Assembly: GCA_019242175.1 (NCBI GenBank) | Contig: JAFAVZ010000214.1 | Location: 1-39,257 of the forward strand | DNA: 39,257 bases | Direction: 5' to 3' | Source of the DNA: Acidobacteriota bacterium | GTDB taxonomy: Bacteria; Acidobacteriota; Thermoanaerobaculia; Gp7-AA8 | In this document: piece by piece, positions 4,636 to 38,211 of the stretch | How the letters are laid out: each line of letters begins with the position of its first letter | Position numbering within the stretch: the stretch's first letter is position 1 | Notes under the pieces: model-generated | The model's database searches: none | The model's input: the letters and a program-made list of their open reading frames with translations, nothing else | Told to the model about the DNA's origin: nothing | Made by a program: the position numbers and the translations under genes

Positions 4636-5245
4636 CACACGGTCTGCGGTAGAAGACATCTCCGTCAGTTGCATATGGCACGATCCGGCTTTTCGCCGCG
4701 TCGATTTCGGGATAGAGCGTCACGAGCGACTGGAATTCGTCGCGGCACACGCAGATCAGCCGATCCGCCTTCGTGAAGACATGGACTTCGCCGCGGTCGC
4801 GTGCCTCGTCCGATGCATGGGGGGACTCCTTCAATGTGCGCCGCACTCGCCCCAGCGAAAGAATGTGATGAACGTGCGGCCGGAGGCCGGATGCAATGGC
4901 CGCGAGCCCCGAAAGCCAGCTGAAACTGAGAACGCTGTCGAACGGCTTCGCCGACTGAACGATCTCGCAGACGCGCGTCTGGATCTCGTCGGCATGGCTC
5001 CAGAGGTCGTGATGCGAGAGCTCGTGACTCGGACCAATGGGGAACCGCCTGATCTCACAGCGCGAACCGAACGTCTGCCGTAACGGCTTGCCGGGCCGGC
5101 TTTGTCGCGTGACGAACAGAACGAAATGACCGCCCCGAACGAGATGCCGTCCGAGATCGAACATGAACCGCTGTGCGCCGCCATAGCGGTTCTCACCGGG
5201 CGGGTCAAAGGGGTCATCCGTGAGGGTGATGATCAGGACGTTCAC
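4583..5245 (-). CDS. GT4 glycosyltransferase N-terminal domain (MshA/sucrose-phosphate-synthase-like)
   Basis: 220 aa with GTG start. Motifs DPFDPPG..YGGAQRFMFDLGRHL, SFSWLSG, HHILSLG, ADRLICV and IVPYATD..F match the N-terminal Rossmann half of MshA-like GT4. The C-terminal half is missing and lies in the next, overlapping ORF. Confidence 0.7.
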   Translation of the reverse strand: MNVLIITLTDDPFDPPGENRYGGAQRFMFDLGRHLVRGGHFVLFVTRQSRPGKPLRQTFGSRCEIRRFPIGPSHELSHHDLWSHADEIQTRVCEIVQSAKPFDSVLSFSWLSGLAAIASGLRPHVHHILSLGRVRRTLKESPHASDEARDRGEVHVFTKADRLICVCRDEFQSLVTLYPEIDAAKSRIVPYATDGDVFYRRPCDADDYVRRQAEGLTQRD

Positions 5246-5328
5246 GATAATCCCGAGTTATCTGCTCTGAAGTTAGCTCTTAGGTTAGAGGGGCCATCGT
5301 CAGAAATTTCCCCCCCCCTCCCTCCGAA

Positions 5329-6660
5329 CTACGAAACCGCCCACCCCACCGCCCCCGCGAGCACCACCATCGCCACCGCCACACCCGACAGCAGCCAGCG
5401 GTCCTGGCGGCGGGCGCGGGCGAGCGCGTCGGCGTAGGGCATCGTTGTGTGGGCGATCATCGTGTACAGGGGGAGCCAGGTTCGGGGGGCGAGGCGGTTC
5501 AGCCACACGTCCAGTCTCTTGCGCAGGACGAAGAGGGGCGACTGCACGCGTTGGCGGAGCTCCACGAAGTTTTCCTTCGAAAGCTCGGCGAGCGTATCGG
5601 TGTGGGGGCGGCGGGAGCGTTCGTAGGAGCGGAACGCGTCGAGGCGCGACGTTGGGTGGGTGGTCGTGAGGGCGGCGGACAGGGCGGAGCAGTCCTCGAA
5701 CGCGCTGTTCATCCCCTGGCCGTAGAACGGGTAGACGGCGTGGCAAGAGTCGCCGATCAGCACGATCCAGTCGTTGAGGTGCCAGGGGGCGGTGCGGGTG
5801 GTCACCAGCGAGCCGACGGGGTGGCGTTCCCACTGCGCGAGGAGCTCGGGCAGTTGCGGCACGAGGTCGGGGAAGTAGCGCGTGAAGAACGACGAGATGG
5901 CGGTGCGGTCGGGCAGCGTCGCGAAGCTGTCGGGGCCTTCGAACGGCAGGAACAGCGTCAGCGTGTGGGAGCCGTTGCGGTTCGCGTGGGACACGATCAG
6001 GCAGTGGCCGCGGGGCCAGACGTGCAGCGCGTTCAGCTTCAGCTGCGACGTTCCGTCGGGGCGGGCGGGGAGGTTCAGCTCCTTGTAGCCCCACTCCAGG
6101 AACTCCTTGCTGAAGTTTGCCCGTTGGCCGCGTTGCATCTCCTCGCGGATCTTCGAGAACGCGCCGTCGGCGCCCACGATCCAATCCGCGGTGATGGGAG
6201 TGACGGTGCCGGTGGCGTCGGCGATCTGGATCGAGCGCGTCGCGGCATCGACGCCGACGCAGCGGTGCTCGAAGTGCAGTTGGACCGAGGGGTGGGCTTC
6301 GGCGCGGTCGAGGAGGAGGTCGTTCAGCTCGTTGCGGTCGATCGAGTGCAGCACTTCCTGGCGGTTCTTCCCGTAGGGCTGGAAGCGCGCGGTGCCGTCG
6401 AGCGTGTGGATCACCCGGCCTTCCATCGGGACGGCGAGCGAGAGCACCTCGTCGCGCAGGCCGACTTCGGACAGCGCGGCGATGCCGCGTTTGGAGAGAC
6501 CGAGGTTGATGGAGCGGCCTTCGGCGCCCCGGCGGGCGCGGGGGTCGGGGCGGCGCTCGTAGACGTCGACGCGGTGCCCCTGTTGCGCGAGGCGCAGCGC
6601 GAAGAGCGAGCCGGCGAGACCGCCGCCGATGACGGCAACGTGATCCTTCCCCTGGTCCAT
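5329..6660 (-). CDS. kmo: Kynurenine 3-monooxygenase-like FAD-dependent monooxygenase
   Basis: Real start MDQGKDH at 6660 (443 aa). GGGLAG Rossmann motif, EGRSINLGLSKRG, GADGAFS, GYKEL, ALHVWPRG and GDSCHAVYPFYGQGMNSAFED are characteristic of KMO. Hydrophobic C-terminal tail. Confidence 0.88.
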   Translation of the reverse strand: MDQGKDHVAVIGGGLAGSLFALRLAQQGHRVDVYERRPDPRARRGAEGRSINLGLSKRGIAALSEVGLRDEVLSLAVPMEGRVIHTLDGTARFQPYGKNRQEVLHSIDRNELNDLLLDRAEAHPSVQLHFEHRCVGVDAATRSIQIADATGTVTPITADWIVGADGAFSKIREEMQRGQRANFSKEFLEWGYKELNLPARPDGTSQLKLNALHVWPRGHCLIVSHANRNGSHTLTLFLPFEGPDSFATLPDRTAISSFFTRYFPDLVPQLPELLAQWERHPVGSLVTTRTAPWHLNDWIVLIGDSCHAVYPFYGQGMNSAFEDCSALSAALTTTHPTSRLDAFRSYERSRRPHTDTLAELSKENFVELRQRVQSPLFVLRKRLDVWLNRLAPRTWLPLYTMIAHTTMPYADALARARRQDRWLLSGVAVAMVVLAGAVGWAVS

Positions 6661-6662
6661 GG

Positions 6663-7439
6663 CTAGGTCGCGACCTCTTCGGGCGTGCGGATCTCGATCT
6701 CGGCCGTCACGAGCGCGTCGAGGGCGGCGTCGAAGTTGTTGCGGCTGATCTGCGCGCCGAGGCGTCGGAGATAGGAGCGAATGAACTCCGCGCGGATCGG
6801 CGGCGGATAGAGCATCCGCTGCAGGAACGGCAGGTCCGTTTCCACCATGTGGCGGATGGCGAGCGCCGGGATCGGGCTGCGCAGGGGGCGGAAGTCCGCG
6901 TTGCGCAGGCCGGGGCTCTCGTTGCGCTCGTGGAACTCGCCGATCATCAGGCCGGCGTCGACGAAACGCGCCTTCAGCTGCGCCTGCACGTCGTCGATGA
7001 CCCACGCGTCTTCGGTCGCGACGTTCGGGAAGACGATCACCATCGCCTTCCAGCTCGCGTCCTCGCCGCTCTTCGGCTCGAGCTCGAGGAAGAGATCGCG
7101 GAACAGGCCGATGATCTCGATGATGGCCTGGCGGTCGCCGCGGCCGAGGGAGCATTCGGCGAGCCAGATGGTGTCCTGGATGATCGCGCCGGGGACGAAC
7201 GGGCAGACGGCGCCGGGGCGTCCCAGCTCGCGGTGCGGGCGGCCGAGGAAACGGCGCATCCATTGCGCGGTGACTCGCAACGGATGCTCTTCCGCCATCA
7301 GGTTCTCGACCTGCGTGAACGTGAAGAGTTGCGGAGATGCGGGCATCGGGGGCGCTTCCGACTGGATGGACAGTCCGGCTGCGCGTGCCGCGTGCGGGCA
7401 ACCGGCGGCTAGTGCTTTTTCGTGAAGGTCGTCGCTCAT
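6663..7439 (-). CDS. DUF6875-like protein (BGC-associated, possibly a heme-dependent Trp-modifying enzyme)
   Basis: Start MSDDLHEK at 7439 with GGAG RBS (258 aa). Motifs PHRELGRPGAVCPFV, GLMIGEFH, PGLRN..FRPLRSP and AIRHMV are recalled as DUF6875. The function is inference. Confidence 0.6.
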   Translation of the reverse strand: MSDDLHEKALAAGCPHAARAAGLSIQSEAPPMPASPQLFTFTQVENLMAEEHPLRVTAQWMRRFLGRPHRELGRPGAVCPFVPGAIIQDTIWLAECSLGRGDRQAIIEIIGLFRDLFLELEPKSGEDASWKAMVIVFPNVATEDAWVIDDVQAQLKARFVDAGLMIGEFHERNESPGLRNADFRPLRSPIPALAIRHMVETDLPFLQRMLYPPPIRAEFIRSYLRRLGAQISRNNFDAALDALVTAEIEIRTPEEVAT

Positions 7440-7455
7440 CGTGAGTTCTCCGGAG

Positions 7456-8762
7456 TCATGCAGCGACCGCCGGCGCTGGTTCGACCGGCGCGTCGGCGAG
7501 ATCCGTCTCGACGTTGCGCAGTCCGCGCAACGCGTAGCCGGCGAGGCCGACGAGGGCCATGGCCAGTCCCGAGACAATGAAAATCAAGGCGATGCCGCGG
7601 CCGGCGCCAACGCCGATCACGCGGCCGACGGAGCCGGCCAGCGCGCCGCCGGGCATCAGCAGCGGCTCGAAAACGCGGTCCGCAAGCGGGCCGGCGATGC
7701 AGAAACCGATCGGCATCGCAGCCTCGGAAAGCACGCGCTGGATGGCGAAACATCGGCCCTGCAGCGCAGGCGGCACTTTGGTCTGCCAGATCGCGTCCTG
7801 CGACGCATTCATCACCGGCAGCGAGATGAAGAAGAGGAAGCCCATCGCGGAGAGGAACCAGATGTCCGCGCGGAGGCCGTGGCCGGCGAGCATGACGCCG
7901 GCGAAGGCGGTGAAGGCGAGCACGCCGTGGATGCGTTTCTTCGGACCGCCCCACGCGCTCATGAGGATGCCGCCGAGGAGGAGGCCGCAGCCGCCGATGG
8001 ACATCTGCATGCCGAGGGCAGCGGCGTTTGCGAACGCGAGGACCATCGGCGTGATGAGGATGCTGACGATGCCGAAGAGGAAGTTCGTGAAACCGAAGAT
8101 GCCGAGGAGGCCGAGCAGGCCGGCGCGTTCGCGGACGAACCGCCAGCCTTCCGCGGCTTCCGTCCACAACGCGCCAGGTTGCTCGTGCTCGGCCCCTGCG
8201 GGGCGGGGAATCTCGACGAGGGCGAGGGCGATGATGCTGGCGACGAACGTCACGAAGTCGACGAACAGCACGCCGTAGAGCGAGATCGTGCTCACCAGCA
8301 CGCCGGCGAGTGCGGGACCGATGATCTGCGCCGCGGCGAACGCCGTCTGCACCATTCCGTTCGCGCGGGCGAGATGCTCCTTCGGCACGAGCAGCGGGAT
8401 ACTCGCCATGTACGCGGGCATCTGGAAGCCGACGGCGACCGCCTGCAAACCGGCGGCGAGATAGATCTCCCAGATCGATAGCGCGCCGAGGGAGAGGAGG
8501 ATGCCGAGGCCGAGGACGGTGAAGGCGGCGAGGGCGTCGGCGGCGATCATCACCTTGCGCCGATCCCAACGGTCGACGAGCGCGCCGGCGAACGGCGCGA
8601 GCAGCAGCGCCGGCACGGCCATGCAGATGAAGATGAACGCGTACTGCGTCGTCGATCCGGTCTTCTGCAATACCCAGATGCCGACGGCGAACGTCGATAG
8701 GCGCGTGCCGATCACGGAGATCAGCTGGCCGATCCAGATCCAGAGAAATGCGCGGCGGCGGG

Positions 8763-8766
<4 letters not shown>
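7456..8766 (-). CDS. MFS transporter (EntS/DHA3 macrolide-efflux-like)
   Basis: Start MTRRRAFLWIWIGQ at 8766 overlaps the NRPS3 stop (436 aa). About 12 hydrophobic segments and MFS motif A GALVDRWDRRKVM. Confidence 0.9.
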
Positions 8767-13097
<4,331 letters not shown>

Positions 13098-13099
13098 GG

Positions 13100-16000
13100 C
13101 TACGCCTGCCCCCCGAGCAGCGCCTGCAGCTCGTCTTCGCTGAGCGCGCTGAGCGTCTGTTCCATCTCCGCGACGAGGAGCGGCGCGAACGCGGCGACGG
13201 TTGGCGCCTCGAACAGACGGCGCAGCGGCATGTCGACGCCGAACGTGCGGCTGACGCGGGCGATGAGCTGCGTGGCGAGCAGCGAGTGTCCGCCGAGGGA
13301 GAAGAAGTCGTCTTCGATGCCGACGTTGGGGACGCCGAGGACGTCGGCCCAGATCTCGACGAGCTGCTCTTCTTCGGCGGTGCGCGGGGCGACGGGCGCC
13401 GATTCCTGGACGTCGAGGAGATCGGGGACGGGCAACGCGCGACGATCGACTTTGCCGTTCGGCGAGATCGGCAGCTTCGCCAGGGTCACGAAGGCCGAGG
13501 GGATCATGTAGTCGGGCAGGACGGCGCGGAGATGCGCGCGCAGCTCGGCCGTCGTCGGCGCCGCGTCGTTCGGAACGACGTAGGCGACGAGGCGTTTATC
13601 GCCGGGACGGTCTTCGCGAAGGATGACCACGGCCTGGCGCACGGACGCGTGCTCGCGCAACGCGCCTTCGATCTCGCCCAGCTCGATGCGGAAGCCGCGC
13701 AGTTTGACCTGGTTGTCGGCGCGGCCGAGGATCTCCAGGCGGCCGTCGCGACGCCAACGCGCGATGTCGCCGCTGCGATAGAGCCGAGAGCCTTCGACAT
13801 CGCTGAAGGGATCGGCGATGAAGCGGTCGGCGGTGAGCTCGGGGCGGTTGATGTAGCCGTGGCCGAGGCCGATGCCGCCGATGAGGAGCTCGCCCGGAAC
13901 GCCGTCCGGCACGAGCTGCAGCGTCGCCGGATCGGCGACGTACATGCGCATGTTCTGGATCGGCTTGCCGATCGTGATCGGCTCGTTCGGAAGCACGCGG
14001 TCGATCACCGACCACACCGTGGTTTCGGTCGGGCCGTAGACGTTCCACAGCTCCGCGCAGCGTTCGAGGAGGCGGTCGGCGAGATCGCGCGGGAGCGGCT
14101 CGCCGCCGATGAGGATGCGCAGGCCGTCGATGCCTTCCCACCCGGCGTCGAGGAGCATGCGCCACGTGGCGGGCGTCCCCTGCGCGACCGTCGCGCCGCT
14201 GGTCTTCAGGAACTGCGCGAGGCGTTTGCCGTCCTTCGCCGTGCCGCGATCGCTGACCGCGGCCTTCGCGCCGCAGATGAGCGGCAGCAGTAGCTCCAGC
14301 ACGGAGATGTCGAAGGAAAGGGTGGTGATCGCGCAGACGGTGTCGGCCGCGGTAAGGCCCGGCTCCTTCAGCATCGCGAGAAGGAAGTTCGCCGCGCCGC
14401 GATGCGGGATCTGCACGCCTTTCGGCTTGCCGGTGGAGCCGGAGGTGAAGATGACGTACGCGGTGTCGGCCGGCCCCGGGCCGGTGCGTTGGTCGGCAAA
14501 GCCTCGGCGGCCATTCTCGGTGTCATCCTGAGCCGCGGAGACGGCGAAGGATCCGTACCGATCTCGCGCTGCGCCCGAAGGTACGGATCCTTCGCTGCGC
14601 TCAGGATGACACTCGTCCACGAAGAGCAGCTCGACATCCGTCGCCGGCACTTCGTCGCGGAGGGCTTGCTGGGTCACGACGAGGCGGACGCCGGTGTCGC
14701 TGAGCATGAACGCGAGGCGTTCGCGGGGATACGTCGGATCGAGCGGGAGGTACGCGGCGCCGGACTTCAGGATGCCGAGGACCGCGGTCATCATTTCCGG
14801 TCCACGGTCGGTGTAGATGCCGACCAACTCGCCCGGTTTCGCGCCGTGCGCGCGCAGCTCGATGGCGAACGCATTCGCGGCGTCGTCGAGCTCGCGGTAA
14901 GTGAGTTTGCGATCGGGGAAGATGAGCGCAACGTCGTCCGGCGTGCGTGTGACCTGCGCCTCGATGAGCGCCGTGAGCGTCGTCGGCGGCGTGTCGACGA
15001 CGTTCGCCACGCGGTCCACGAGCAGCGTGTGGCGCTCGGCTTCCGTCAGCAGCGGCAGCTCGCCGATCTTCGTCTCGGGATGCTCGACCGCGCCGCGGAA
15101 AAGGACGGCGAAATGCTCGCCGAAGGCGCGTACCGTCTCCGCTTCGAAGAGGTCGGTGCTGTATTCCAGGAGAAGGTCGAGCCGGTCGTCGTTTTGCTCC
15201 ACAAACAACGCGAGGTCCGTGCGCGCGGTCGCGGAGTTGATCTCGTCCATCTGCAGCGGCGTCAGCGTGATGCCGGGCAGGTCGAGACGCTGGTGAGGCA
15301 TGTTCTGGAAGAACACCATCACCTGGAAGAGCGGCGAGTGGCCGAGGGAACGGTCGACTTGCAGCTCTTCGATGAGGCGCTCTACGGGAAGGTCCTGATG
15401 CCCGTACGCGCCGAGCGTCGTCTCCTTGATGCGGTCGAGCAGCTCGCGGAACGTCGGGTTGCCGGAGAGCTCGGTGCGGAGCGCGAGCGTGTTGACGAAG
15501 TAGCCGACGAGTGGCTCGAGCTCCTCGCGGTTGCGACCGGCGATGCCTGAGCCGACGACGACGTCGGTCTGGCCCGTCGTCCGGAACAAAAGCGTCTTCA
15601 GCGCTGCAAGAAAGGTCATGAACAGCGTGACGCCTTCCTCCCGGCTGCGCTGCTTCGCCGCCTCGACCAGCTCGGGCGGAATGGTGATGCGCACGACGTC
15701 GCCGCGATACGACTGCTTCGCCGGACGTGGACGATCGGCGGGGATCTCCAGGATCGGGAGGTTGCCGGCGAGACGCTCCGTCCAGTAGTCGAGCTGCCCT
15801 TTGAGGACGTCGCCCTGCAGCCACTCGCGCTGCCAGAGCGCGAAGTCGGCGTACTGGATCGGCAGCTCCGTGAGCGGCGACGGTTTCCCTTGTTGATACG
15901 CCTCGTACAACGCGCCGAGCTCGCGGTAGAGGACGGAGAACGACCAGCCGTCGACGGCGATGTGATGGAAGTTGAAGACGAGCAGGTGCTCCTCTTCGGA

Positions 16001-16471
16001 CAGGCGCACGACGACCGTGCGCATCAGCGGTCCCTTCACCAGATCGAAAGGACGGCGCGCTTCGGCGTTCCCGATCGCGAGTGCCTCCTCGCGCGACGAA
16101 GCATGGAGCAGCGGCAGATCGACGCTGCCTCGTTCGGCGATGACTTGCCGCGGACGGCCGTCCGTCGCCGGCACCGTCGTGCGCAGCGGCTCGTGGCGCT
16201 GCACGAGCGTTTCGAGGCAGCGCCGGAGGATGTCGAGATCGAGCTTGCCGCGCATCCAGGCGCCGGCCGGCACGTTGTAGCTCGCGGAGTCGGGCTCGAG
16301 CTGATCGAGGAGCCAGAGGCGCTGCTGGGCGAACGACGTCGGCAGCGGATCGGGGCGTTCGCGGCGCGTGATGCGTCCGCGCGCGGCCTTCTCCTTCGCC
16401 AGCTGTTGCAGCAGGAGCGCGCGTTTCTGCGGCGAGAGATCGGCGATGCGTTGCTGGTTGACGTCGCTCAT
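13100..16471 (-). CDS. NRPS2: C-A-T, A domain predicted Gly
   Basis: HHIAVDG, FTSGSTGKPKG, NVYGPTE and FFSLGGHSLL. The hand-extracted specificity code DILQLGVVWK is the classic glycine type. 1123 aa. Confidence 0.95.
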   Translation of the reverse strand: MSDVNQQRIADLSPQKRALLLQQLAKEKAARGRITRRERPDPLPTSFAQQRLWLLDQLEPDSASYNVPAGAWMRGKLDLDILRRCLETLVQRHEPLRTTVPATDGRPRQVIAERGSVDLPLLHASSREEALAIGNAEARRPFDLVKGPLMRTVVVRLSEEEHLLVFNFHHIAVDGWSFSVLYRELGALYEAYQQGKPSPLTELPIQYADFALWQREWLQGDVLKGQLDYWTERLAGNLPILEIPADRPRPAKQSYRGDVVRITIPPELVEAAKQRSREEGVTLFMTFLAALKTLLFRTTGQTDVVVGSGIAGRNREELEPLVGYFVNTLALRTELSGNPTFRELLDRIKETTLGAYGHQDLPVERLIEELQVDRSLGHSPLFQVMVFFQNMPHQRLDLPGITLTPLQMDEINSATARTDLALFVEQNDDRLDLLLEYSTDLFEAETVRAFGEHFAVLFRGAVEHPETKIGELPLLTEAERHTLLVDRVANVVDTPPTTLTALIEAQVTRTPDDVALIFPDRKLTYRELDDAANAFAIELRAHGAKPGELVGIYTDRGPEMMTAVLGILKSGAAYLPLDPTYPRERLAFMLSDTGVRLVVTQQALRDEVPATDVELLFVDECHPERSEGSVPSGAARDRYGSFAVSAAQDDTENGRRGFADQRTGPGPADTAYVIFTSGSTGKPKGVQIPHRGAANFLLAMLKEPGLTAADTVCAITTLSFDISVLELLLPLICGAKAAVSDRGTAKDGKRLAQFLKTSGATVAQGTPATWRMLLDAGWEGIDGLRILIGGEPLPRDLADRLLERCAELWNVYGPTETTVWSVIDRVLPNEPITIGKPIQNMRMYVADPATLQLVPDGVPGELLIGGIGLGHGYINRPELTADRFIADPFSDVEGSRLYRSGDIARWRRDGRLEILGRADNQVKLRGFRIELGEIEGALREHASVRQAVVILREDRPGDKRLVAYVVPNDAAPTTAELRAHLRAVLPDYMIPSAFVTLAKLPISPNGKVDRRALPVPDLLDVQESAPVAPRTAEEEQLVEIWADVLGVPNVGIEDDFFSLGGHSLLATQLIARVSRTFGVDMPLRRLFEAPTVAAFAPLLVAEMEQTLSALSEDELQALLGGQA
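14467..14611. repeat. TGTC-family doublet (14521-14611) plus adjacent third motif, in frame inside NRPS2 A domain
   Basis: TGTCATCCTGAGCCGCGGAGACGGCGAAGGATCC-spacer-GGATCCTTCGCTGCGCTCAGGATGACA, encoding CHPERSEGSVPSGAARDRYGSFAVSAAQDD. 14467-14493 is the reverse complement of 11494-11520 with 2 mismatches. Confidence 0.9.
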
Positions 16472-19400
16472 GACAGCTGGCTCCGGAGCAGCAGCGCCTC
16501 TTCATCCGACAAGCCTTCGAGCTGGCTGAGGAGGTCGTCGAGGTTCTCGGTCTCGAGGCTCGCGGCGCGCGCGTTGGTGATGTGCCCGGCGAGCGTCGCG
16601 ACGGTCGGCGCGTCGAAGAGGACCCGCAGCGGGACTTCGATGCCGGTCGATTTCTCGATCCGGGCGAGGAGCTGCATCGCGAGGAGCGAGTGGCCGCCGA
16701 GGTCGAAGAAGTTGTCGTCGCGGCCGATGTCAGTGCGGCCGAGGAGATCGGCCCACAACATGGCAATCATCTGTTCGTCGGGCGTCTGCGGCGCCTCGGC
16801 CACCGTCTTCGCGAACGCTTCCGGCGCGGGGAGCGCGTGGCGATTCACCTTGCCGTTCGGCGTCAGCGGGAACTTCTCCAGCGCGACGAACGCCGCGGGG
16901 ATCATGTAGTCGGGGAGCGACTTGCGGAGGTGCGTGCGCAAATCATCAGCGTTCGCGGTTCCCGTCGTGTACGCGACGAGGCGCTTGTCGCCGGGGCGGT
17001 CTTCGCGGCAGTGCACGACGGCCTGTTCGACGTCTTCGTGATGCGCGAGCACCGCCTCGATCTCGCCGAGCTCGATGCGAAAGCCGCGGAGCTTCACCTG
17101 GTGATCGATGCGGCCGAGGACTTCGAGCTGGCCGTCCGGACGCCAGGCGGCGAGATCGCCAGCGCGGTACAGCCGCGCGTTCGGGCGTTCGGAGAACGGA
17201 TCGGCGACGAACTTCTCGGCGGTGAGGTCGGGGCGACCGAGGTAGCCGCGGGCGAGGCCGTCGCCGCCGATGAGGAGCTCGCCCGGGACGCCCGGCGGGA
17301 GCAGCTGGAGGTGGCGGTCGACGATGTGAATCTGCGTGTTGGCGACCGGACGCCCGATCGGGATCGGGCCGCTGCCCGACTCGATGCGGCCGAGGGCCGA
17401 ATAGACCGTGGTCTCCGTCGGGCCGTAGAGGTTCCACAGCTCGCGGCCGCACGGGATCAGACGCTCGGCGAGCTCGCGGGGGAGCGCTTCGCCGGTCGAG
17501 ATGATCTTCAGGCCCGGCTTCCCGGTCCAGCCGATGTCGAGGAGCATGCGCCACGTCGCGGGTGTGGCCTGGAGGATCGTGACGTCGTTCTCGGCGACGA
17601 GGCGCGCGAGAGCGTTGCCGTCGCGGACGGTGTCGCGGTCGGCGAGGAGGATGTGCGCGCCGACGGTGAGCGGCAGCACGAGCTCGAAGAGGGCGATGTC
17701 GAAGGAGAGCGTGGAGACGGCGCAGACCGTGTCCTGCGCGGTCATGCCCGGCGCCTTGGCGACGGAGGCGAGGAGGTTCGCCGCGGAGCGCTGCGTGATC
17801 TGCACGCCTTTCGGGCGGCCGGTGGAGCCGGAGGTGAAGATGACGTAGGCGAGGTCGTCGGGGGAGGAAATGTGGGCGCCGGCTTCAGCCGGCCGCCGGG
17901 ACCGGCTGAAGCCGGTCCCCACGTTTTCCTCTACATTCACCACCTCGAGGCCCGCGACCGGCACGCGGTCGCGCAGCTCAGGCTGCGTCACCACGACGCG
18001 CGCTTCGGCGTCGCCGAGCATGAACGCGAGGCGTTCGGCCGGATACGACGGGTCGAGCGGGACGTAGGCGCCGCCGGCTTCGAGGATGGCGACGATGCCG
18101 ATCACCATCTCCAGCGAGCGTTCCACGAAGAGGCCGACGAGCGAGCCGGGGCCGACGCCTTTCTCGCGCAGTTCCGCGGCGAGCGCGGAGGCGCGGGCGC
18201 GGAGCTCGGCGTAGGTCAGCGTGACGCCGCGGAACGTGATCGCCGGCTTGTCGGACGGAGGCTGGATCAGATCGATGAGCGGGCCGGGCGTGTAGTCGGC
18301 GCGCGTGTCGTTCCACTGCGCGAGCTGCGCGCGTTCGGCGTCCGTCAACAGAGGCAATGCGGCGAGCGGCGTCGAGGCGTCGGCGATCGCGGCGCGGAGG
18401 AGCACGACGAAGTTGCCGGCGAGGCGTTCGATCGTCGCGCGGTCGAAGAGGTCGGTGCTGTACTGGAAGAGCAGCTCGCCCTGCTCCTCCTGATTCACGA
18501 ACAGCGCGATGTCCGTCTGCGCGGAGCCGGGGTGCACCTGGTCGAGCGGCACGCGCGAGACGCGCAGGCCGTTCATCGCGATGGGATCGCGCGCGTAGTT
18601 CTGGAAGAACATCATCACCTGCACGAACGGCATGTGACTCGCGGCGCGGTCGATCTTCATCGACTCCAGGACGCGGCTGAGCGGCGCATCCTGATTCGCC
18701 TGCGCGCCGAGCGTGGTTTCGCGAACGCGCGCCAGCAGATCGCCGAACGTCATCGCATCGGCAAACTGCGCGCGGAGCACGAGCGTGTTCACGAAGAAGC
18801 CGACGATCGACTCCAGCTCCGCGCGCGGGCGGTTCGCCAGGCCGACGCCGATCGGCAGATCGTCCTGTCCGGTGAGGCGATGCAGCAGCGTCGTCCAGGC
18901 GGCGAAGAGCGTCATGAACGGCGTGACGTTCTCCTTCCGGCTGAACTGCTCCATCGCCTCGTACACGTCGGGCGGGATGAGGTGACGCACGAGCGAGCCT
19001 TTGAACGACTGCACGGGCGGGCGGGCGTGGTCGGCGGGAAGGTCGAGCGTCGAAGGGCAGCCCTCGAGATGCTCGCGCCAGTGCGCGACCTGGCGGTCCA
19101 TCCGTTCGCCTTCCAGCCACTCGCGCTGCCAGAGCGCGTAGTCGGCGTACTGCAGGCGCACGGGCTCGAGCGCCTCGCCGTTGTAGAGCCGGGCGAGCTC
19201 GCCGAGGATGACGTTGATCGACCAGCCGTCGATGAGCAGGTGATGGACGGCGATCGCGAGCAGGTGATGCTCACCGCTCACCTGCACGAGCAGCGCGCGG
19301 ACGAGCGGACCGCGCGCGAGGTCGAACGAGGCGGCGATCGACGCGCTCGCGATCTGCAGCGCTTCGTCGTCACTCGCGGCATTCGCGCGGACGAGAGGCA

Positions 19401-19749
19401 CCGACAGTGAAGGAGCGATGCGTTGGAATCCGCGGCCGTCTTCCGACGGAACCGAGGTGCGCAGCGACTCGTGGCGGCGCACCACTTCGTCGATCGCGCG
19501 TTGGAGCGCGTCGACGTCGAGCGCGCCCTCGAGCCAGAGCGCGATCGACTCGTTGTACGCGGCGCTGCCGGGCGCGAGCTGCTCGACGACCCACAGCCGC
19601 TCCTGGCCGAAAGACAGCGGAATGCGCTCGGGGCGCGGACGAGGCCGCACCTCCCCTGCCGCGGCGCGCCGTTCGGCGACGAGTTTTTCGAGCAGCGCGC
19701 GTTTGGCGCTGGAGAGTCCGGCGAGACGTTCGTTGTTGTCGTTGGTCAT
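16468..19749 (-). CDS. NRPS1: C-A-T
   Basis: HHLLIDG, FTSGSTGRPKG, NLYGPTE and FFDLGGHSLL. Hand-extracted code DIFQITLVYK is Gly-clade-like but altered. 1093 aa. Confidence 0.95.
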   Translation of the reverse strand: MTNDNNERLAGLSSAKRALLEKLVAERRAAAGEVRPRPRPERIPLSFGQERLWVVEQLAPGSAAYNESIALWLEGALDVDALQRAIDEVVRRHESLRTSVPSEDGRGFQRIAPSLSVPLVRANAASDDEALQIASASIAASFDLARGPLVRALLVQVSGEHHLLAIAVHHLLIDGWSINVILGELARLYNGEALEPVRLQYADYALWQREWLEGERMDRQVAHWREHLEGCPSTLDLPADHARPPVQSFKGSLVRHLIPPDVYEAMEQFSRKENVTPFMTLFAAWTTLLHRLTGQDDLPIGVGLANRPRAELESIVGFFVNTLVLRAQFADAMTFGDLLARVRETTLGAQANQDAPLSRVLESMKIDRAASHMPFVQVMMFFQNYARDPIAMNGLRVSRVPLDQVHPGSAQTDIALFVNQEEQGELLFQYSTDLFDRATIERLAGNFVVLLRAAIADASTPLAALPLLTDAERAQLAQWNDTRADYTPGPLIDLIQPPSDKPAITFRGVTLTYAELRARASALAAELREKGVGPGSLVGLFVERSLEMVIGIVAILEAGGAYVPLDPSYPAERLAFMLGDAEARVVVTQPELRDRVPVAGLEVVNVEENVGTGFSRSRRPAEAGAHISSPDDLAYVIFTSGSTGRPKGVQITQRSAANLLASVAKAPGMTAQDTVCAVSTLSFDIALFELVLPLTVGAHILLADRDTVRDGNALARLVAENDVTILQATPATWRMLLDIGWTGKPGLKIISTGEALPRELAERLIPCGRELWNLYGPTETTVYSALGRIESGSGPIPIGRPVANTQIHIVDRHLQLLPPGVPGELLIGGDGLARGYLGRPDLTAEKFVADPFSERPNARLYRAGDLAAWRPDGQLEVLGRIDHQVKLRGFRIELGEIEAVLAHHEDVEQAVVHCREDRPGDKRLVAYTTGTANADDLRTHLRKSLPDYMIPAAFVALEKFPLTPNGKVNRHALPAPEAFAKTVAEAPQTPDEQMIAMLWADLLGRTDIGRDDNFFDLGGHSLLAMQLLARIEKSTGIEVPLRVLFDAPTVATLAGHITNARAASLETENLDDLLSQLEGLSDEEALLLRSQLS
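17870..17924. repeat. GTGG-family REP doublet in frame in NRPS1 A domain
   Basis: ATGTGGGCGCCGGCTTCAGCCGGC-cgccg-GGACCGGCTGAAGCCGGTCCCCACGT, encoding NVGTGFSRSRRPAEAGAHI just before the A3 motif. Confidence 0.88.
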
Positions 19750-19751
19750 GA

Positions 19752-22001
19752 TCAGAACCGGAGGAGGTAGCTCACCTTCATGAAGTACTGGCGAGCGGTC
19801 GGGTTGAGCGCGGACTGCGTGGCCACCACCTGCGAGGGCGGGCCGCTGAGCAGCGCGACGTTGTCGTAGTTGTCGGAGTAGCCGAGGTAGAGAACGGTGC
19901 CGGGGTTGAGGACGTAGCTGAAGAGGACGTCGCCCGTGACGTGCTTCGTCCGGGGGAGCGCCACGAGCGATTCATCCGGCGTGATCGCGTGCGTGTCGAC
20001 GATCAGCCGCAGCGCGAGGTAGCGGCTGAACTGCATGTTGATCTTCGTGCGGGAGATCGGGTTGCGGAACACGAGGCTGCCGTCGCCCACGCTGCCGACG
20101 GAGCCGCGCGTGTAGAGGTCGTCGTAGATGAGCGTCTCGTCGATGCGCAGCCGGGAGAAGGGGCTGAGCGTGAAGCCGACCTGGATCAGCTTGCGGTCGC
20201 CGAGGAACGGGTCGAGGCCGGCGCCCGGGAAGTAGTTGACCGCGCTGCCTTGCGAGTAGCTGAGCGAGGCGGTGAGCCACTTCCACCACTCGGTGCGCGC
20301 GGCGACGGTCTCGAGATGCTTGCGGAAGTCGAGGCCGGCGAACAGCTCGTACGACTGCTCGGTGGTCAGCGTGAGCGACGTGCCGCCGACCCAGTTCCAG
20401 TTCATCGACGCGGAGCCGAGCCAGTCCTGCAGCTCGCCGCCGTGATCCCACGTCGCCAGGCCGGTGACGCTCGGGCCCCAGCTGAAGAGCTTCGTCCCCT
20501 CCGACCAGCGCTTGAGGCTCGCCGTGTGCTCGGTCTGGCGGATGTCCGTCCGCGGAATGAATCCGAGCTCGCTGATGAAGTTGCGGCTGATGTCGCGGTA
20601 CTGCCCTTCGTAGTTGAAGACCTTGCCGGCGCGGCCGACGTCGAGATAGCCCATCGAGCCGTCGACGTCGCCGAAGAGTCCTCCGCGGTTCCAGCTCTTG
20701 CCGATCTGGCCGGTGGCCGTCCAGTTCTCGCCGATGCGGATGCGGCTGTCGACGGCGGCGGTGCGGTTGGAGACGCCGCCGATGTCTTTGCTCGTGAGGA
20801 GAAAGCCGGCGTTCGACTGCTGGCCGAAGTCGCGTTGCAGGCGCGCGACGCCGATGTTCGCGCGTTGCCCGAACTCGGGATGCTCGACGGGCAGTCCGAG
20901 CCCGCCTTCACGATCGTCGATGGCCAGGCCGCCGAGGGCCCAGCGGCCGACGCGGCCGGTCATGCGCGCGCCGATGCGCGGATCGGCGATGCGCCGGGAG
21001 AAGAAAAGGCTCATCGGCGTCTGGAAGAAGCCGGCGTTTTCGAGGAAGAACGGTCGCTTCTCGGGGAACAGCACCTCGAAGCGCTGGTTCACGATCACCT
21101 GCGGCTCATCCGACTCGACTTCGGAAAAGTCGGGATTCACCGTGACGTCGGCGGCGAGCGACTCGCGCAGTACGAACTTGCCGTCGAGGCCCACGCGGCC
21201 GGGCGTCGTGTTCGTGTAGCCGGCCGGACGCACCGTGCCCGGACCGCCCGGTTCGAGCAGGCGCGAATGCGTCAACACCGAGTACGGGATGAACTGGTAG
21301 TTGCGGCCCGGCGAGATCGTGTCGTCGATCTCCAGCGTCGCGAACTGGGGGACGAAGCCGGCCACGCGGTCGGTGATCCACGGCCAGTAAACGAACTCGT
21401 TCTTGCGCGGGATGATGCGGCTGAGCGAGACGCCCCAACGCTGCGTCGGCCCCGGCGCGAAGCGGATGCTCTTGAACGGGATCGTCATCAGGACCGCGAA
21501 GCCGTCTTTCGTGATGCGGCCTTCGGAGTACCAGAGCGTGTCGAAGTTGAAGTCGTAGCCCTGGCCTTCGGTCGTGATGCCGTCCAGCTGGACGCCGAAG
21601 GGATTCGCGGCGAAGACGTACGCGCGCTGCTTGTCGTGGAAGGTGTCGAGGAAGATCTGCACGCCTTCGTCGCCGAAGATGTCCTCGCGCCGCGTGACGC
21701 GCGCGCGCACTTTGTCCGGCTCGTCCTGGCAAATGAAGGCGACGTAGAGGTTCACGTCGTCGTAGCCGAGGTAGACGGCGGTGTTGAGCGTGGCCGGCTC
21801 GCCGTCTTTCGGCGTGTTCTGGCGCATGTCGGTGACGCGCTCCATCCCCGCGGCGCCGGCCGGGATGATGTCCTGCAGATGCGGCTGCACGGCGAGGCGC
21901 GGCACGCGCAGGACGGCCGTGGAGTCGGGGATCTTCTGGGCGAACGCGGGAAGGGAAAGGAACAACAGCGCGGCGAACGCGCCTCGCAGATGCTTGGTCA
22001 T
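19752..22001 (-). CDS. Exported CBM9-like/DUF5916-type outer-membrane protein
   Basis: Start MTKHLRG at 22001 (749 aa) with signal peptide ending AFA/Q. CBM9-like YDDVNLYVAF and NPFGVQLDG, family motifs VNPDFSEVESD and FPEKRPFFLE, and beta-barrel-type C-terminus KVSYLLRF. Confidence 0.8.
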   Translation of the reverse strand: MTKHLRGAFAALLFLSLPAFAQKIPDSTAVLRVPRLAVQPHLQDIIPAGAAGMERVTDMRQNTPKDGEPATLNTAVYLGYDDVNLYVAFICQDEPDKVRARVTRREDIFGDEGVQIFLDTFHDKQRAYVFAANPFGVQLDGITTEGQGYDFNFDTLWYSEGRITKDGFAVLMTIPFKSIRFAPGPTQRWGVSLSRIIPRKNEFVYWPWITDRVAGFVPQFATLEIDDTISPGRNYQFIPYSVLTHSRLLEPGGPGTVRPAGYTNTTPGRVGLDGKFVLRESLAADVTVNPDFSEVESDEPQVIVNQRFEVLFPEKRPFFLENAGFFQTPMSLFFSRRIADPRIGARMTGRVGRWALGGLAIDDREGGLGLPVEHPEFGQRANIGVARLQRDFGQQSNAGFLLTSKDIGGVSNRTAAVDSRIRIGENWTATGQIGKSWNRGGLFGDVDGSMGYLDVGRAGKVFNYEGQYRDISRNFISELGFIPRTDIRQTEHTASLKRWSEGTKLFSWGPSVTGLATWDHGGELQDWLGSASMNWNWVGGTSLTLTTEQSYELFAGLDFRKHLETVAARTEWWKWLTASLSYSQGSAVNYFPGAGLDPFLGDRKLIQVGFTLSPFSRLRIDETLIYDDLYTRGSVGSVGDGSLVFRNPISRTKINMQFSRYLALRLIVDTHAITPDESLVALPRTKHVTGDVLFSYVLNPGTVLYLGYSDNYDNVALLSGPPSQVVATQSALNPTARQYFMKVSYLLRF

Positions 22002-23542
22002 GACTGAGCGGGCTCCTGAATCAGATCGGTAGCGGGGCGCGCGGCGCGGCGAAGAATCGGCGCGGCGGTGAAAGCGACGGCGATGAGCTGGACGAGAAAT
22101 CCGAGAAAGAGCCGCAGACGGCCGTCGGTCGCGAGCGGACCCATGAACGGCAGGACGAGGGAGAGGGGGATGTAGAGCAGGAGGCACGTGAGGGCGGGCT
22201 TCATCCCGCCCTGGGACCGGCTGAAGCCGGTCCCCACGTTTTCTCGCCAGTACTGCGGCATCACGAGGCTCCACAGCCAGAGCACCGGCGGCAGCGCGTA
22301 GGTATCGGGCACGAAGGGGCTGCGCAGCGCGGCGAGGGCGATGAGCGCGATCCAGAGCTGGGCCTGCGTCAGGCGGTCTTCGCGGCCGATGCGCAGGCCG
22401 ACGACGACCGCGATCCCAAGCACGATCAGGCTGTAGACGAGCGAGACCTTCTGCACGGCGTCGTGCATCGCGAAGGCGACGCCGAGGTCGTGGAGCTTGA
22501 GGGCGAGGCCGGGGATGCCCTGATTGATGGCGACGACCTGGTGGATGATGGGGATGTCGAGCTCCATGAAGCTCCACGCCTCCCCTTTCGTGATGCGGGG
22601 CAACCCGTAGCTGAGGAACTGGCGCAACGGATTCGTGCCCATCCAAAGGACGGAGACCGCGGTGTAGAACGCGCTGAAGCCGCACGTCCAGATCACCGCG
22701 CGCCATCGTTTCTGCAGCACGAGCGGGACGAGGACGATGCCGGGGAAAATCTTGAAGACGGCGAAGCCGAGGAGCGCGCCGCCGGCGGCGTTGCGTCCGC
22801 GGGCGAAGCTCACCAGCGCGATCATCGTCATCGCGATCGCCGCGAGCTGGAAGTTGCCGATCTGCAGCGTCAGGAGGATCGGCGTCGCCAGCGCCAACGC
22901 CGGCGTGAGGAAGAGCGCGCGTTTGCCTTCCTCGCCGCCGACCCACTTCGCCACGATCACCACCGCGGCGCCGAACGTCGCGGCTTCGAGCGCGAACCAC
23001 GCGGTGCGCAGCGTCATGAACCCCTTCGTGAACGCCAGCCCGATGCGCGGCAGAAGCATGAAGGACGACGGATAGAGGAACTCGTCCATCGTGAAACGGC
23101 CGAGGAAGCTCTGGTAGAGATCCGTGTCGTAGAGCTCCGACTGGTAGGGATTCGGCGCGCCTTCCATCGCCAGCTTCGCCGAGAGGTACAGCGAGGAGAA
23201 GCAGCTGTGGCGGATGTAGAAGGGATCGAACCAGAGCACCGAGAGCTCGGCGTGGCTCGAGTCCATCATGAACCAGGCGAGTCCCCACAAACGGACGGCG
23301 GCCAGGACGCCGACGACGAGGAACGCGACGCGTGCGGGCGTTCCGACTTCGGGCAATGGCAACGCCGCGGCGATGCGGTCACGCGCGGCGTAGAAGCCCG
23401 CGCACACGACGAGCGCCGCGACGGCGAGCGCCGCGAGAGGGACGAGCCCGAGAGCGGAGAGCGCGGCTGCGGCGACGGGAATCGCTAGCAGCGCGCTCAC
23501 AACAAGGAGATAAGAATCGTGAGTCCGGATCACGCTTAACAC
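21998..23542 (-). CDS. GT87/DUF2029-like GT-C membrane glycosyltransferase
   Basis: Multi-TM protein of about 514 aa with DEFLYPSSF, LQIGNFQ and FKIFPG motifs typical of GT87. An alternative GTG start at 23533 has an AAGGTG RBS. Confidence 0.72.
   Translation of the reverse strand: MLSVIRTHDSYLLVVSALLAIPVAAAALSALGLVPLAALAVAALVVCAGFYAARDRIAAALPLPEVGTPARVAFLVVGVLAAVRLWGLAWFMMDSSHAELSVLWFDPFYIRHSCFSSLYLSAKLAMEGAPNPYQSELYDTDLYQSFLGRFTMDEFLYPSSFMLLPRIGLAFTKGFMTLRTAWFALEAATFGAAVVIVAKWVGGEEGKRALFLTPALALATPILLTLQIGNFQLAAIAMTMIALVSFARGRNAAGGALLGFAVFKIFPGIVLVPLVLQKRWRAVIWTCGFSAFYTAVSVLWMGTNPLRQFLSYGLPRITKGEAWSFMELDIPIIHQVVAINQGIPGLALKLHDLGVAFAMHDAVQKVSLVYSLIVLGIAVVVGLRIGREDRLTQAQLWIALIALAALRSPFVPDTYALPPVLWLWSLVMPQYWRENVGTGFSRSQGGMKPALTCLLLYIPLSLVLPFMGPLATDGRLRLFLGFLVQLIAVAFTAAPILRRAARPATDLIQEPAQS
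22186..22239. repeat. GTGG-family REP doublet in frame in GT87 gene
   Basis: 54 bp ACGTG...CACGT. Shares GGGACCGGCTGAAGCCGGTCCCCACGTTTTC with the NRPS1 insert, so both proteins contain ENVGTGFSRS. Confidence 0.88.
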
Positions 23543-23604
23543 CTTTTTGCAAGGGGTTGCTGGGAAATGTCCGGTGAACCTTCTGTTTCAGGACTGAGCG
23601 GCGG

Positions 23605-23633
23605 ATATTAGAAGGAAAAGCGGAGACGCGCAA
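23605..23633 (-). promoter_or_regulatory. Putative sigma70 promoter of the NRPS operon
   Basis: Minus strand TTGCGC (23633-23628), 17 nt, TAATAT (23610-23605), in the AT-richer divergent intergenic region. Confidence 0.55.
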
Positions 23634-23723
23634 TAGTGTCTTTCCTTGCCTCCACCGTTGCACGTGGGCGTCAGGACGGAGGCACGCATCGCCATACGCG
23701 GCCGAAAAGGTACGATGCGCGCG

Positions 23724-24290
23724 ATGCAGGAAGACGTCATGGTCGTTCCCCGCGCCGACCTCCCGATGCTCGACGAGCACCGCGCGGATCTCATCGTCGG
23801 CGACGCCGAGGCGATCCTCGAGTCGATCGCCACGAAACACCTGTTTCTCCCTCGCCCCGAAGCGGAGAAGTCGCCTGCTTTCAAGCAGATCATTCCGTAT
23901 GTGGTGATCCGCTCCGGCGGCCATTACTTCCTCTTGCGGCGCACGCCGAAGCAGTCCGAAACGCGCCTCCACGACAAGCTGTCGCTGGGCATCGGAGGGC
24001 ACATCAATCCCGGCCACGACCTCCTCGCCGGGCTGCGCAAGGAGCTGTTCGAGGAGGTCGAGATCGACGACGATTTCGAGCTGACGTTCGCCGGCATCCT
24101 GAACGACGATTCGACCGAGGTCGGGCAGGTGCATCTGGGCGCCGTCTACATCCTGGAGACTTCGCGCAACGTGCGCGTGCTGGAAACGGAGAAGATGTCC
24201 GGCTCCTGGGTCACGCGCGAGGCGCTCGCTCCGCTGCGCGAGGCGATGGAGACGTGGTCGCAGATCGTCTATGACCGGCTCATTGCTTAA
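23724..24290 (+). CDS. NUDIX-superfamily hydrolase (phosphoesterase-like)
   Basis: KQIIPYVVI, SLGIGGHIN, GLRKELFEEV (Nudix box) and VGQVHLG. Start is 23724 or 23715. Confidence 0.8.
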   Translation: MQEDVMVVPRADLPMLDEHRADLIVGDAEAILESIATKHLFLPRPEAEKSPAFKQIIPYVVIRSGGHYFLLRRTPKQSETRLHDKLSLGIGGHINPGHDLLAGLRKELFEEVEIDDDFELTFAGILNDDSTEVGQVHLGAVYILETSRNVRVLETEKMSGSWVTREALAPLREAMETWSQIVYDRLIA

Positions 24291-25869: not shown

Positions 25870-26016
25870 GCCCCGCAGAGAGCGAAGGATCTCCCAGCCT
25901 GGACGCCGATCGCCATATCAGGAGATCCTCCCCGTCTCCGCGGGTCAGGATGACACTCGGCGCACGCTCCGCCTGAAGGTACGGATTCTTCGCCGTCTGC
26001 GCGGCTCAGAATGACA
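25859..26016. repeat. TGTC-family doublet plus half element between convergent genes
   Basis: Doublet at 25859-25955. 25971-26016 is the reverse complement of the array arm starting at 27098. Could act as a bidirectional terminator or stabiliser. Confidence 0.88.
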
Positions 26017-26017
26017 C

Positions 26018-26968: not shown

Positions 26969-26987
26969 TAGCGGCAATGGTGGTGCG

Positions 26988-27797: not shown

Positions 27798-27801
27798 CCG
27801 C

Positions 27802-29805: not shown

Positions 29806-29907
29806 GACATCGTCAGATGTCCACCTTCACCAAGGCCGGCGAGGACGCGAAACTTTGTGAAGGCTTGGCCAACAAGCGCAGCGGGCCGTGCCCGCCTCAG
29901 GATGACA
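29771..29907. repeat. Composite degenerate TGTC-family repeats at sulfatase 5' end / divergent intergenic region
   Basis: GGTACGGATCCTTCGGCGTCTTCGCG...ATGACA arm at 29771-29809. 29857-29907 matches 11656-11706. Confidence 0.8.
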
Positions 29908-31993: not shown

Positions 31994-31996
31994 GCC

Positions 31997-38210: not shown

Positions 38211-38211
38211 G

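Follow-up and report, generated by a model that had tools for sequence, protein, structure and literature searches.

The 39,257-nt window described here, the whole of contig JAFAVZ010000214.1 from an Acidobacteriota genome (5.6 Mb in 686 contigs, 86% complete), carries on its minus strand a single operon of eight open reading frames (ORFs; 5329-23542), three of which encode nonribosomal peptide synthetases (NRPSs). We consider it probable that this is a conserved orphan operon for a short peptide ending in an oxidised tryptophan- or kynurenine-derived residue, which we call Z, and that it works by the pathway set out below; the product would most likely be a small-residue-Gly-Z peptide aldehyde that is exported and possibly glycosylated in the periplasm. 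Eight translationally coupled genes had been named in an earlier sequence-only reading of this DNA, and our ORF calls and Pfam matches confirmed that gene set (Table 1). From the GT87 gene to the kynurenine monooxygenase (KMO) paralogue the junctions are a 4-nt overlap, a 2-nt gap, a 4-nt overlap, a 2-nt gap, a 4-nt overlap, a 16-nt gap, and a 2-nt gap, lengths that depend on the start codons we chose. Between the window and its congener G002 the dN/dS ratio was 0.14-0.26 for each of the eight genes (Nei-Gojobori); all eight are under purifying selection, and since the ratios are this low we regard them as real and constrained genes rather than chance ORFs in high-G+C DNA. The G+C content of the operon (5001-24000) is 0.66-0.70, as against 0.63-0.64 in the 5-kb flanks upstream and downstream, and together with the patchy phyletic pattern described below this fits horizontal acquisition. 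Scans for promoters and terminators at both ends of the operon gave nothing above shuffled expectation.

Table 1. Genes of the operon and repeat elements within them, with positions in the window (NRPS domains: C, condensation; A, adenylation; T, thiolation; R, thioester reductase; MFS, major facilitator superfamily; aa, amino acids).
Feature	Positions	Strand	Description	Basis or occurrence
GT87	21998..23542	-	integral-membrane GT-C glycosyltransferase of the GT87 family, 514 aa, opening the operon	Pfam GT87
DUF5916	19752..22001	-	749 aa, signal peptide, CBM9-like beta-sandwich, and barrel	Pfam DUF5916, AlphaFold2
NRPS1	16468..19749	-	C-A-T, 1093 aa, code DIFQITLVYK	Pfam
NRPS2	13100..16471	-	C-A-T, 1123 aa, code DILQLGVVWK	Pfam
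NRPS3	8763..13097	-	C-A-T-R, 1444 aa, code DAGDMGHVCK	Pfam, NCBIfam
MFS	7456..8766	-	transporter, 436 aa, DHA3/EntS-like efflux type	Pfam MFS_1, MFS_3
DUF6875	6663..7439	-	258 aa, cytochrome P422 family, predicted L-Trp hydroxylase of heme-thiolate type	Pfam, motifs
KMO paralogue	5329..6660	-	cluster-specific, 443 aa, Pfam FAD_binding_3	PDB KMO chains
Two repA and one repB in NRPS3	11446..11601		in frame, within 73-aa C-A linker insert	absent from five other genomes' orthologues
repA-type element in NRPS2 A domain	14515..14595		in frame	partly shared with congener
repB-type element in NRPS1 A domain	17870..17924		in frame	shared with congener
repB-type element in GT87	22185..22239		in frame, 15 extra residues	absent from congener, Lysobacter, Rugamonas

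The domain orders of the three synthetases came from Pfam matches with E-values of 1e-98 to 1e-108 for the C domains and 4e-67 to 3e-90 for the A domains, and the translations carry the motifs of modular NRPSs: HHLLIDG/HHIAVDG/HHIVSDG, YGPTE, NGKV(D/N), and GGHS/GGHS/GGDS, the NRPS1 translation holding HHLLIDG and GGHS. None of the NRPS equivalog models in NCBIfam came near its cut-off for these proteins, and Pfam identified neither a thioesterase (TE) nor an epimerisation domain in them. NRPS3 ends in an R domain (199 bits with NAD_binding_4 and 290.7 bits with TIGR01746, whose cut-off is 213.35) with the nucleotide site TGATGFLG and the catalytic pair YNETK, and with this terminal domain and no TE the logic of reductive release proposed from the letters alone was upheld, with an aldehyde or imine as the predicted form of release. 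The N-terminal C domain of NRPS1 is intact and of the elongation type by similarity ranking, which is not a phylogeny: its PDB matches to Txo1 (4.1e-91) and TycC (6.6e-66) compare with 1e-15 and 1e-12 for the starter C domains of RzmA and CDA-C1. Lipopeptide-type (starter-C) initiation was disfavoured, as this domain ranks with elongation C domains.

The A-domain codes were mapped through the FDxS, (T/A)P, GGE, NxYGPTE, and NGK anchors and then through MAFFT columns. The NRPS1 code is of a small-residue type and that of NRPS2 is Gly-like; the accessible text of PMC12283262 reports DILQLGMIWK as a Gly signature, which is exactly the code of the NRPS2 orthologues of Rugamonas and Janthinobacterium, and lists DAWWLGGTFK among Val-domain sequences. 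The code of NRPS3 includes a polar Asp278 and His322, and a search of the searchable literature found neither DAGDMGHVCK nor DIFQITLVYK. Of the X-(small aa)-Gly-(unusual aa) form put forward in the sequence-only reading, the small-Gly-unusual order fits these codes, and the leading X fared less well, its one backing being the elongation-type C domain at the N-terminus of NRPS1.

To place the operon among its relatives we compared the best 80 of 522 loci encoding DUF6875 (P422, see below), with one genome per species and with neighbours called by tblastn and Pfam. The last A domain was surveyed at the 55 related loci where MFS was matched on the plus strand, of which 50 could be scored because an NRPS frame ended at the MFS gene; the code was DAGDMGHVCK in 40 of these 50. 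The same three codes as in the window occur in Lysobacter enzymogenes and in two other Acidobacteriota genomes, and elsewhere the upstream modules differ: the Rugamonas assembly line is A-T-C-A-T (two Val-like modules) followed by Gly and then Z-R, that of Janthinobacterium has four modules, and that of G055, which shares the class but not the family, is a hybrid with a ketosynthase-acyltransferase (KS-AT) module in place of Gly. Only the last module with its R domain is constant among lineages while the modules upstream vary, so the two oxidases encoded in the operon would work on either the C-terminal residue or the completed product.

The first of these oxidases is the DUF6875 protein encoded by the seventh gene (Pfam, 197.4 bits; cut-off 24.5). 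This family was renamed cytochrome P422 by Ma et al. (bioRxiv 10.64898/2025.12.11.692455), and the accessible text of their preprint describes heme-thiolate enzymes with activities on free L-tryptophan that include hydroxylation at N1, C6, or C7, or C-S bond chemistry; a DUF6875 protein was also used elsewhere as a presumed C7 hydroxylase, according to the part of PMC13307353 that is accessible. All four published P422 motifs are present in the operon protein, namely RPGAVCP for HBR (defined as RxGxVCP), RHMVETDLPF for SBR1 (Rx(M/L)x3Dx2F), DDVQAQLK for SBR2 (Dx2(Q/H)x3K), and MIGEF for SBR3 (MxGxF), and we predict that it is an L-tryptophan hydroxylase of this family. When these motifs were compared between KMO-linked and KMO-free P422 loci, the sole difference was H/F at the second SBR1 position. 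Among the 84 soluble P422 enzymes that the accessible preprint text gives by phylum, none is from Acidobacteriota (bioRxiv 10.64898/2025.12.11.692455). A sequence search of the PDB with the operon P422 returned no hits at E-values up to 10, so there was no structural anchor for its regiochemistry.

Within the class, P422 was found in four of 61 genomes: that of the window, two congeners (84% identity), and G055 (46%). The full eight-gene order is kept in the congener G002, and the 3' part of it lies on a short contig of the other congener, G001. Across the 80 loci both MFS and KMO were called at 52, with the order MFS-P422-KMO on one strand at 50; neither was called at 22, all of them cyanobacterial-type or unclassified, and only one of the two was called at six, four of these being contigs shorter than 4.4 kb. 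An R domain lies no more than 400 nt upstream of MFS at 43 loci. The hosts of the cluster include Thermoanaerobaculia and other Acidobacteriota, many Lysobacterales (L. enzymogenes among them), Rugamonas, Janthinobacterium, Duganella, and one Anaerolineae metagenome-assembled genome. In two variants, those of G055 (locus L009) and of locus L091, KMO starts 1.3-1.5 kb after P422 instead of directly behind it; at the G055 locus an O-methyltransferase gene (L009 15873-16988) stands between the two, which suggests that the residue occurs there as a methoxy derivative.

These comparisons bear on what the sequence-only reading had said of the novelty of the operon. It held that the pathway would fall if the non-NRPS genes were not conserved with the NRPSs in other genomes, and the reverse was observed, as MFS, P422, KMO, GT87, and DUF5916 co-occur with them elsewhere. 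Its view that the gene set matched nothing characterised stands insofar as the searchable literature yielded no characterised cluster with these genes, and gives way at the seventh gene, a predicted P422 tryptophan hydroxylase whose chemistry is partly in print (accessible text of bioRxiv 10.64898/2025.12.11.692455). Similarly, as a candidate for a new pathway the cluster is shared with other genomes, being widespread among distant soil bacteria and present in cultured Lysobacter, Rugamonas, and Janthinobacterium.

The second oxidase aligns over its full length to the KMO of Pseudomonas fluorescens (PfKMO, PDB 5fn0; E-value 3.4e-88, 299.6 bits), and the best NCBIfam model for it is VioC (206.8 bits, under the cut-off of 760). 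Its identity to the cluster copies of five other genomes is 63-79% (53-88% over the 17 copies aligned), while L. enzymogenes and Rugamonas each have a second, housekeeping KMO that is only 40% and 39% identical to it, respectively; the housekeeping gene of Rugamonas adjoins one for tryptophan 2,3-dioxygenase (TDO). We aligned 18 cluster copies (the window's and 17 others, picked from the 53 KMO-bearing loci so as to span the taxonomy) with these two housekeeping copies. The accessible text of PMC6376250 gives R84, Y98, Y404, and N369 as the residues that bind the carboxylate of the substrate and L213, L226, I224, F238, and M373 as those lining its ring. R84, Y98, N369, Y404, L213, and F238 were kept in 20/20 of the aligned proteins, whereas L226H, I224V, M373L, and Y370F were found in 18/18 cluster copies; of these, H320 is replaced by Y (16 copies) or F (two), M222 by L (17) or F (one), and T408 by A (16) or S (two). 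At the positions altered in the cluster copies both housekeeping KMOs retain the PfKMO residues. The operon protein thus has the canonical carboxylate site of KMO and lacks its ring pocket (three of five ring residues replaced) and its orthology, and by this sequence evidence it is a cluster-specific paralogue, not the housekeeping KMO. Since the carboxylate binders are kept and the ring residues replaced, it would hold a kynurenine-type alpha-amino acid in a rebuilt, more polar ring pocket. Beyond the region aligned to PfKMO, the C-terminus (5329-5400) is a hydrophobic stretch, ...LLSGVAVAMVVLAGAVGWAVS, that may be a membrane anchor.

Taking these parts together, we propose a pathway of six steps. 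P422 would hydroxylate free L-tryptophan, an activity known for the family, and a housekeeping TDO and a formamidase encoded elsewhere in the genome would open the indole ring. The KMO paralogue would then hydroxylate the ring-substituted or plain kynurenine, adding a second hydroxyl or, if the two oxidases do not act in series, giving 3-hydroxykynurenine. The tripeptide would be built by NRPS1 (small residue), NRPS2 (glycine), and NRPS3 (Z) in the order in which their domains lie, with Asp278 and His322 of NRPS3 suited to the polar ring of Z. The R domain, judging from its type, would release a peptide aldehyde, with possible cyclisation. In the last step, for which co-inheritance is our guide, MFS would pump the peptide over the inner membrane, GT87 may glycosylate it in the periplasm with a sugar from a polyprenyl-phosphate donor, and the DUF5916 barrel with its CBM9-like domain would handle the product at the outer membrane. 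As to the supply of kynurenine, TDO in the window's genome is encoded only on other contigs, split at contig ends, and it lies outside the cluster in 5/5 other cluster genomes. Three cyclase-family genes (possible formamidases) are present; in this 86%-complete genome kynureninase and a second KMO were not found, and 3-hydroxyanthranilate dioxygenase scored under its cut-off.

KMO and R-domain NRPSs occur together in pyrrolobenzodiazepine clusters, and the C domain TomB of tomaymycin is among the PDB matches of the operon (E-value 3.3e-53), so a pathway of the anthramycin, sibiromycin, or tilivalline type had to be weighed. We regard this as highly improbable. The operon lacks an A-T aryl-acid loading module and has three C-A-T modules where such clusters have two, and none of the codes is of the proline type; kynureninase was not found in the 86%-complete genome, and TDO lies outside the cluster. 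The sequence-only reading had already remarked that these hallmarks were absent, and its observation was borne out for the aryl starter, for kynureninase, and for TDO. The pyrrolobenzodiazepine reading was rejected on this composition of the cluster.

A harder question is which position P422 oxidises. The accessible preprint text assigns N1-hydroxylation to subclade II-b, comprising P422s of Cyanobacteriota and Pseudomonadota in NRPS clusters (bioRxiv 10.64898/2025.12.11.692455). The nearest relatives of the operon P422 come from these same phyla and lie within NRPS clusters, and its SBR2 has Gln, not His, like that of the N1-hydroxylase Mc170 as given in the accessible part of the source. The C-terminal residue could then be N1-hydroxy-tryptophan made by P422 alone, with the KMO paralogue tailoring the indole or the finished peptide; its relatives VioC and VioD do act on indoles, and the VioC model did score 206.8 bits. 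We think this rather unlikely, if deserving of serious attention, as all four residues that bind the kynurenine carboxylate are kept and the match to KMO (299.6 bits) is stronger than that to VioC, which is far under its cut-off. Furthermore, at the 22 cyanobacterial-type P422 loci NRPS genes occur without KMO, so the KMO-linked P422 group represents a separate context.

The same question supplies the first of several points that weigh against the kynurenine-ended peptide aldehyde we favor. N1-hydroxy-tryptophan is not an obvious substrate for TDO or KMO, so P422 and KMO may work separately rather than one after the other; if instead the operon P422 were a C7 hydroxylase, the KMO would be redundant, as the route through 7-hydroxy-tryptophan and TDO bypasses KMO in the accessible account of bioRxiv 10.64898/2025.12.11.692455. 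Hydroxylation at C6 followed by KMO would reconcile both enzymes in one route. The positions of the specificity codes were taken from motif anchors, not from a structure-based alignment to GrsA, and the last module was other than DAGDMGHVCK at 10 of the 50 scorable loci: one of these ten was truncated, and the other nine modules were Gly-like (seven), Ala-like (one), or DAEEVGTVYK (one). At 11 MFS-bearing loci there was no R domain. No loading module was found within the window although NRPS1 starts with an intact elongation-type C domain; other NRPS contigs are present elsewhere in this fragmented assembly, and the peptide may carry an extra N-terminal unit encoded there. With regard to glycosylation, the operon in the window has no sugar-activation genes, and no GT87 was found beside the cluster in two other Acidobacteriota genomes (G064 and G065; 12-15 kb examined).

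The three remaining proteins would act at the envelope. Pfam matched GT87 at 68.7 bits (cut-off 25, with profile positions 1-237 of 237 covered), while DUF5916 was matched at 48.2 bits (cut-off 22.6) over residues 264-340 only, and CBM9_1 in the same protein scored 18.4 bits, below its cut-off of 23.4. The DUF5916 protein has a signal peptide (N-terminus MTKHLRGAFAALLFLSLPAFAQ) and ends in ...YLLRF, with a terminal aromatic residue. An AlphaFold2 model built from a 40-sequence alignment (pLDDT 85.3, pTM 0.81) has a beta-sandwich at the N-terminus and a barrel with some 24 strands, and its top Foldseek matches were TonB-dependent receptors, MtrB, and LptD with TM-scores of 0.22-0.38. The family profile, signal peptide, modeled barrel, and terminal residue support a large outer-membrane barrel and nothing more specific, and we found no mention of DUF5916 in the searchable literature. 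The MFS protein matched MFS_1 (113 bits), MFS_3 (77.9 bits), TIGR00900 (226 bits, below cut-off), and the EntS model (E-value 3.6e-24).

The EntS match, together with an R domain that resembles that of myxochelin MxcG (637 bits, below cut-off) and a barrel whose best fold matches include the siderophore receptors BauA, FemA, FptA, and PfeA, raises the idea of a metal-binding product, i.e., a siderophore-like o-aminophenol or catechol peptide with MFS as an EntS-type exporter and the DUF5916 barrel as the uptake receptor; a dihydroxylated kynurenine would indeed chelate. We judge this quite unlikely. The TM-scores allow no more than the description of a large barrel, and the window showed neither a TonB-box or plug family nor a periplasmic binding protein, an ABC importer, or a Fur-type feature. 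In addition, DUF5916 paralogues occur in 58 of the 61 genomes of the class (56/59 if G025 and G042, flagged as unpublished and also counted in the P422 and GT87 tallies, are left out, with conclusions unchanged), which is not suggestive of one specific ligand.

It could also be asked whether GT87 and DUF5916 belong to the peptide pathway at all. The usual substrates of GT-C enzymes are lipids, glycans, or proteins, and the pair might be mere neighbours with a separate envelope-glycan function. In L. enzymogenes GT87 (44% identity) and DUF5916 (47%) lie 8-11 kb upstream of NRPS1 on the opposite strand, and the sugar-metabolism genes in between encode a class II aldolase, a nucleotidyl transferase, a PRK-type kinase, and a HAD hydrolase; in Rugamonas genes for a nucleotidyl transferase, a GT2, and an ALG3-like GT-C come after the pair, and the two Acidobacteriota genomes in which GT87 was not found beside the cluster fit it as well. 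We give this explanation a small chance. GT87 and DUF5916 are translationally coupled to NRPS1 in the window, and across three lineages at least three different arrangements join the pair to the cluster. The sugar-activation and polyprenyl-type GT genes beside the pair in Lysobacter and Rugamonas also speak for the proposed pathway. Directly after KMO it stands at seven of the 80 loci, all from Rugamonas or Janthinobacterium (GT87 40-43% and DUF5916 46-48% identical to those of the window), and at two further loci (L072 and L079) a DUF5916 of 30-31% identity holds this place. Three further Lysobacterales genomes have DUF5916 of 52-53% identity, whose coordinates are compatible with about 9-13 kb from the end of the cluster locus if both are on the same contig; G064 and G065 have a DUF5916 of 69-71% identity directly upstream of NRPS1, Candidatus Angelobacter has a 38% copy on an unplaced contig, and no DUF5916 was found in the Anaerolineae genome with the cluster. 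The G064 copy (L095 12653-14858) is split into two aligned pieces, and the adjoining frame that contains NRPS1 holds a TGA; gene breakage or an error in the sequence may account for this.

The distribution within the class points the same way. At an E-value of 1e-10 or better GT87 was found in 2/60 relatives, which are exactly the two congeners that have the cluster. The cluster DUF5916 is 88% identical in the congeners and 46-53% identical to the cluster copies of Proteobacteria, whereas none of the paralogues outside the genus exceeds 36% identity to it. Because it is closer to the proteobacterial cluster copies than to the paralogues of its own class, this comparison argues for its co-transfer with the cluster. 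The fullest form of our proposal, a pathway mobile between Acidobacteriota, Gammaproteobacteria, and Betaproteobacteria that makes a doubly oxidised, kynurenine-ended peptide aldehyde, its last residue formed by P422 and then by a KMO paralogue specialised for ring-substituted kynurenine, and the peptide glycosylated by GT87 in the periplasm and passed through a dedicated DUF5916 barrel, we hold to be unlikely as a whole; if true, it would provide the first function for DUF5916 and the first periplasmic GT-C/outer-membrane module for a nonribosomal peptide in diderm bacteria.

Several of the genes contain copies of two palindromic elements that are abundant in the genome (Table 1): repA, of 39 nt, has at least 713 matches on 215 contigs, and repB, of 55 nt, has at least 246 matches on 110 contigs. 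The copies within genes are translated as extra loops (e.g., ...VGTGFSRS... and ...ILSREDGEGS...). As the repeats are in frame at four sites, they fit selection for intact genes, and we rejected decay of the operon by repeat insertion, given that the inserts are all in frame and that dN/dS is low. These elements, which resemble REP (repetitive extragenic palindromic) sequences or MITEs (miniature inverted-repeat transposable elements), also occur between genes at 25856-26018, 29768-29811, 31994-32082, and 36021-36075, and an intergenic tandem array at 26985-27800 consists of three 237-nt units (95-96% identical) of repA-type hairpins. Downstream of the operon, 654 nt beyond KMO, a minus-strand gene (2980-4674) encodes a 564-aa protein with an N-terminal GT4 domain and a C-terminal part of about 330 residues without a Pfam match; since no match to it was seen next to the congener's cluster, it is probably not a member of the operon. 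The flanks also encode a CHASE-domain hybrid histidine kinase (36009-38333, minus strand), a sulfatase-TPR protein (27802-29805, minus strand), and a 976-aa AAA ATPase (61-2991, plus strand), and we saw no link between the operon and these three genes.

What the operon offers can be stated briefly. A code that is invariant across at least three phyla, DAGDMGHVCK, would correspond to a building block that has no A-domain assignment in the searchable literature; the cluster ties the P422 family to a KMO paralogue with a rebuilt pocket, which gives both a testable physiological context; and it would provide a first functional lead for DUF5916, a family so common in this class. Because orthologous clusters exist in the cultured, genetically tractable L. 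enzymogenes, Rugamonas, and Janthinobacterium, the product can be sought directly.

Among known systems, the closest are the NRPS-associated P422s, which share the Pfam family, the four motifs, the NRPS cluster setting, and relatives in Pseudomonadota and Cyanobacteriota; unlike those described in the accessible text of the preprint, the P422 of the operon is linked to a KMO paralogue, an R-domain NRPS, GT87, and DUF5916 (bioRxiv 10.64898/2025.12.11.692455). In actinomycin and tasikamide biosynthesis, as far as the accessible accounts go, a P422 (AcmE and the Tsk8 homologue, respectively) likewise feeds an oxidised tryptophan or kynurenine unit into an NRPS product, but there 7-hydroxy-tryptophan and TDO make KMO unnecessary, whereas the cluster in the window has a dedicated KMO paralogue and TDO lies outside it. 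The actinomycin and tasikamide clusters carry their own TDO. Compared with PfKMO, the operon KMO keeps the FAD fold and R84, Y98, N369, and Y404, and differs in belonging to a separate orthologous group of about 40% identity in which L226, I224, and M373 have become H, V, and L, and H320 has become Y. A terminal thioester reductase replaces the TE here as it does in AusA (aureusimine), MxcG (myxochelin), and the nostocyclopeptide and pyrrolobenzodiazepine NRPSs, although the scores against the AusA and MxcG equivalogs (627 against a cut-off of 2500 and 637 against 2300, respectively) are far too low and the module number, substrates, and accessory genes set the operon apart from all of these systems. 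Integral-membrane GT-C mannosyltransferases that use polyprenyl-phosphate sugars and glycosylate outside the cytoplasm are encoded in the ramoplanin, mannopeptimycin, and teicoplanin/A40926 clusters; these actinomycete enzymes are of a PMT/GT39-like family and work in Gram-positive hosts, whereas the operon enzyme is a GT87 in a diderm host and is paired with an outer-membrane barrel. The kind of NRPS cluster seen here is a known one, with an unassigned building block and an unusual envelope module.

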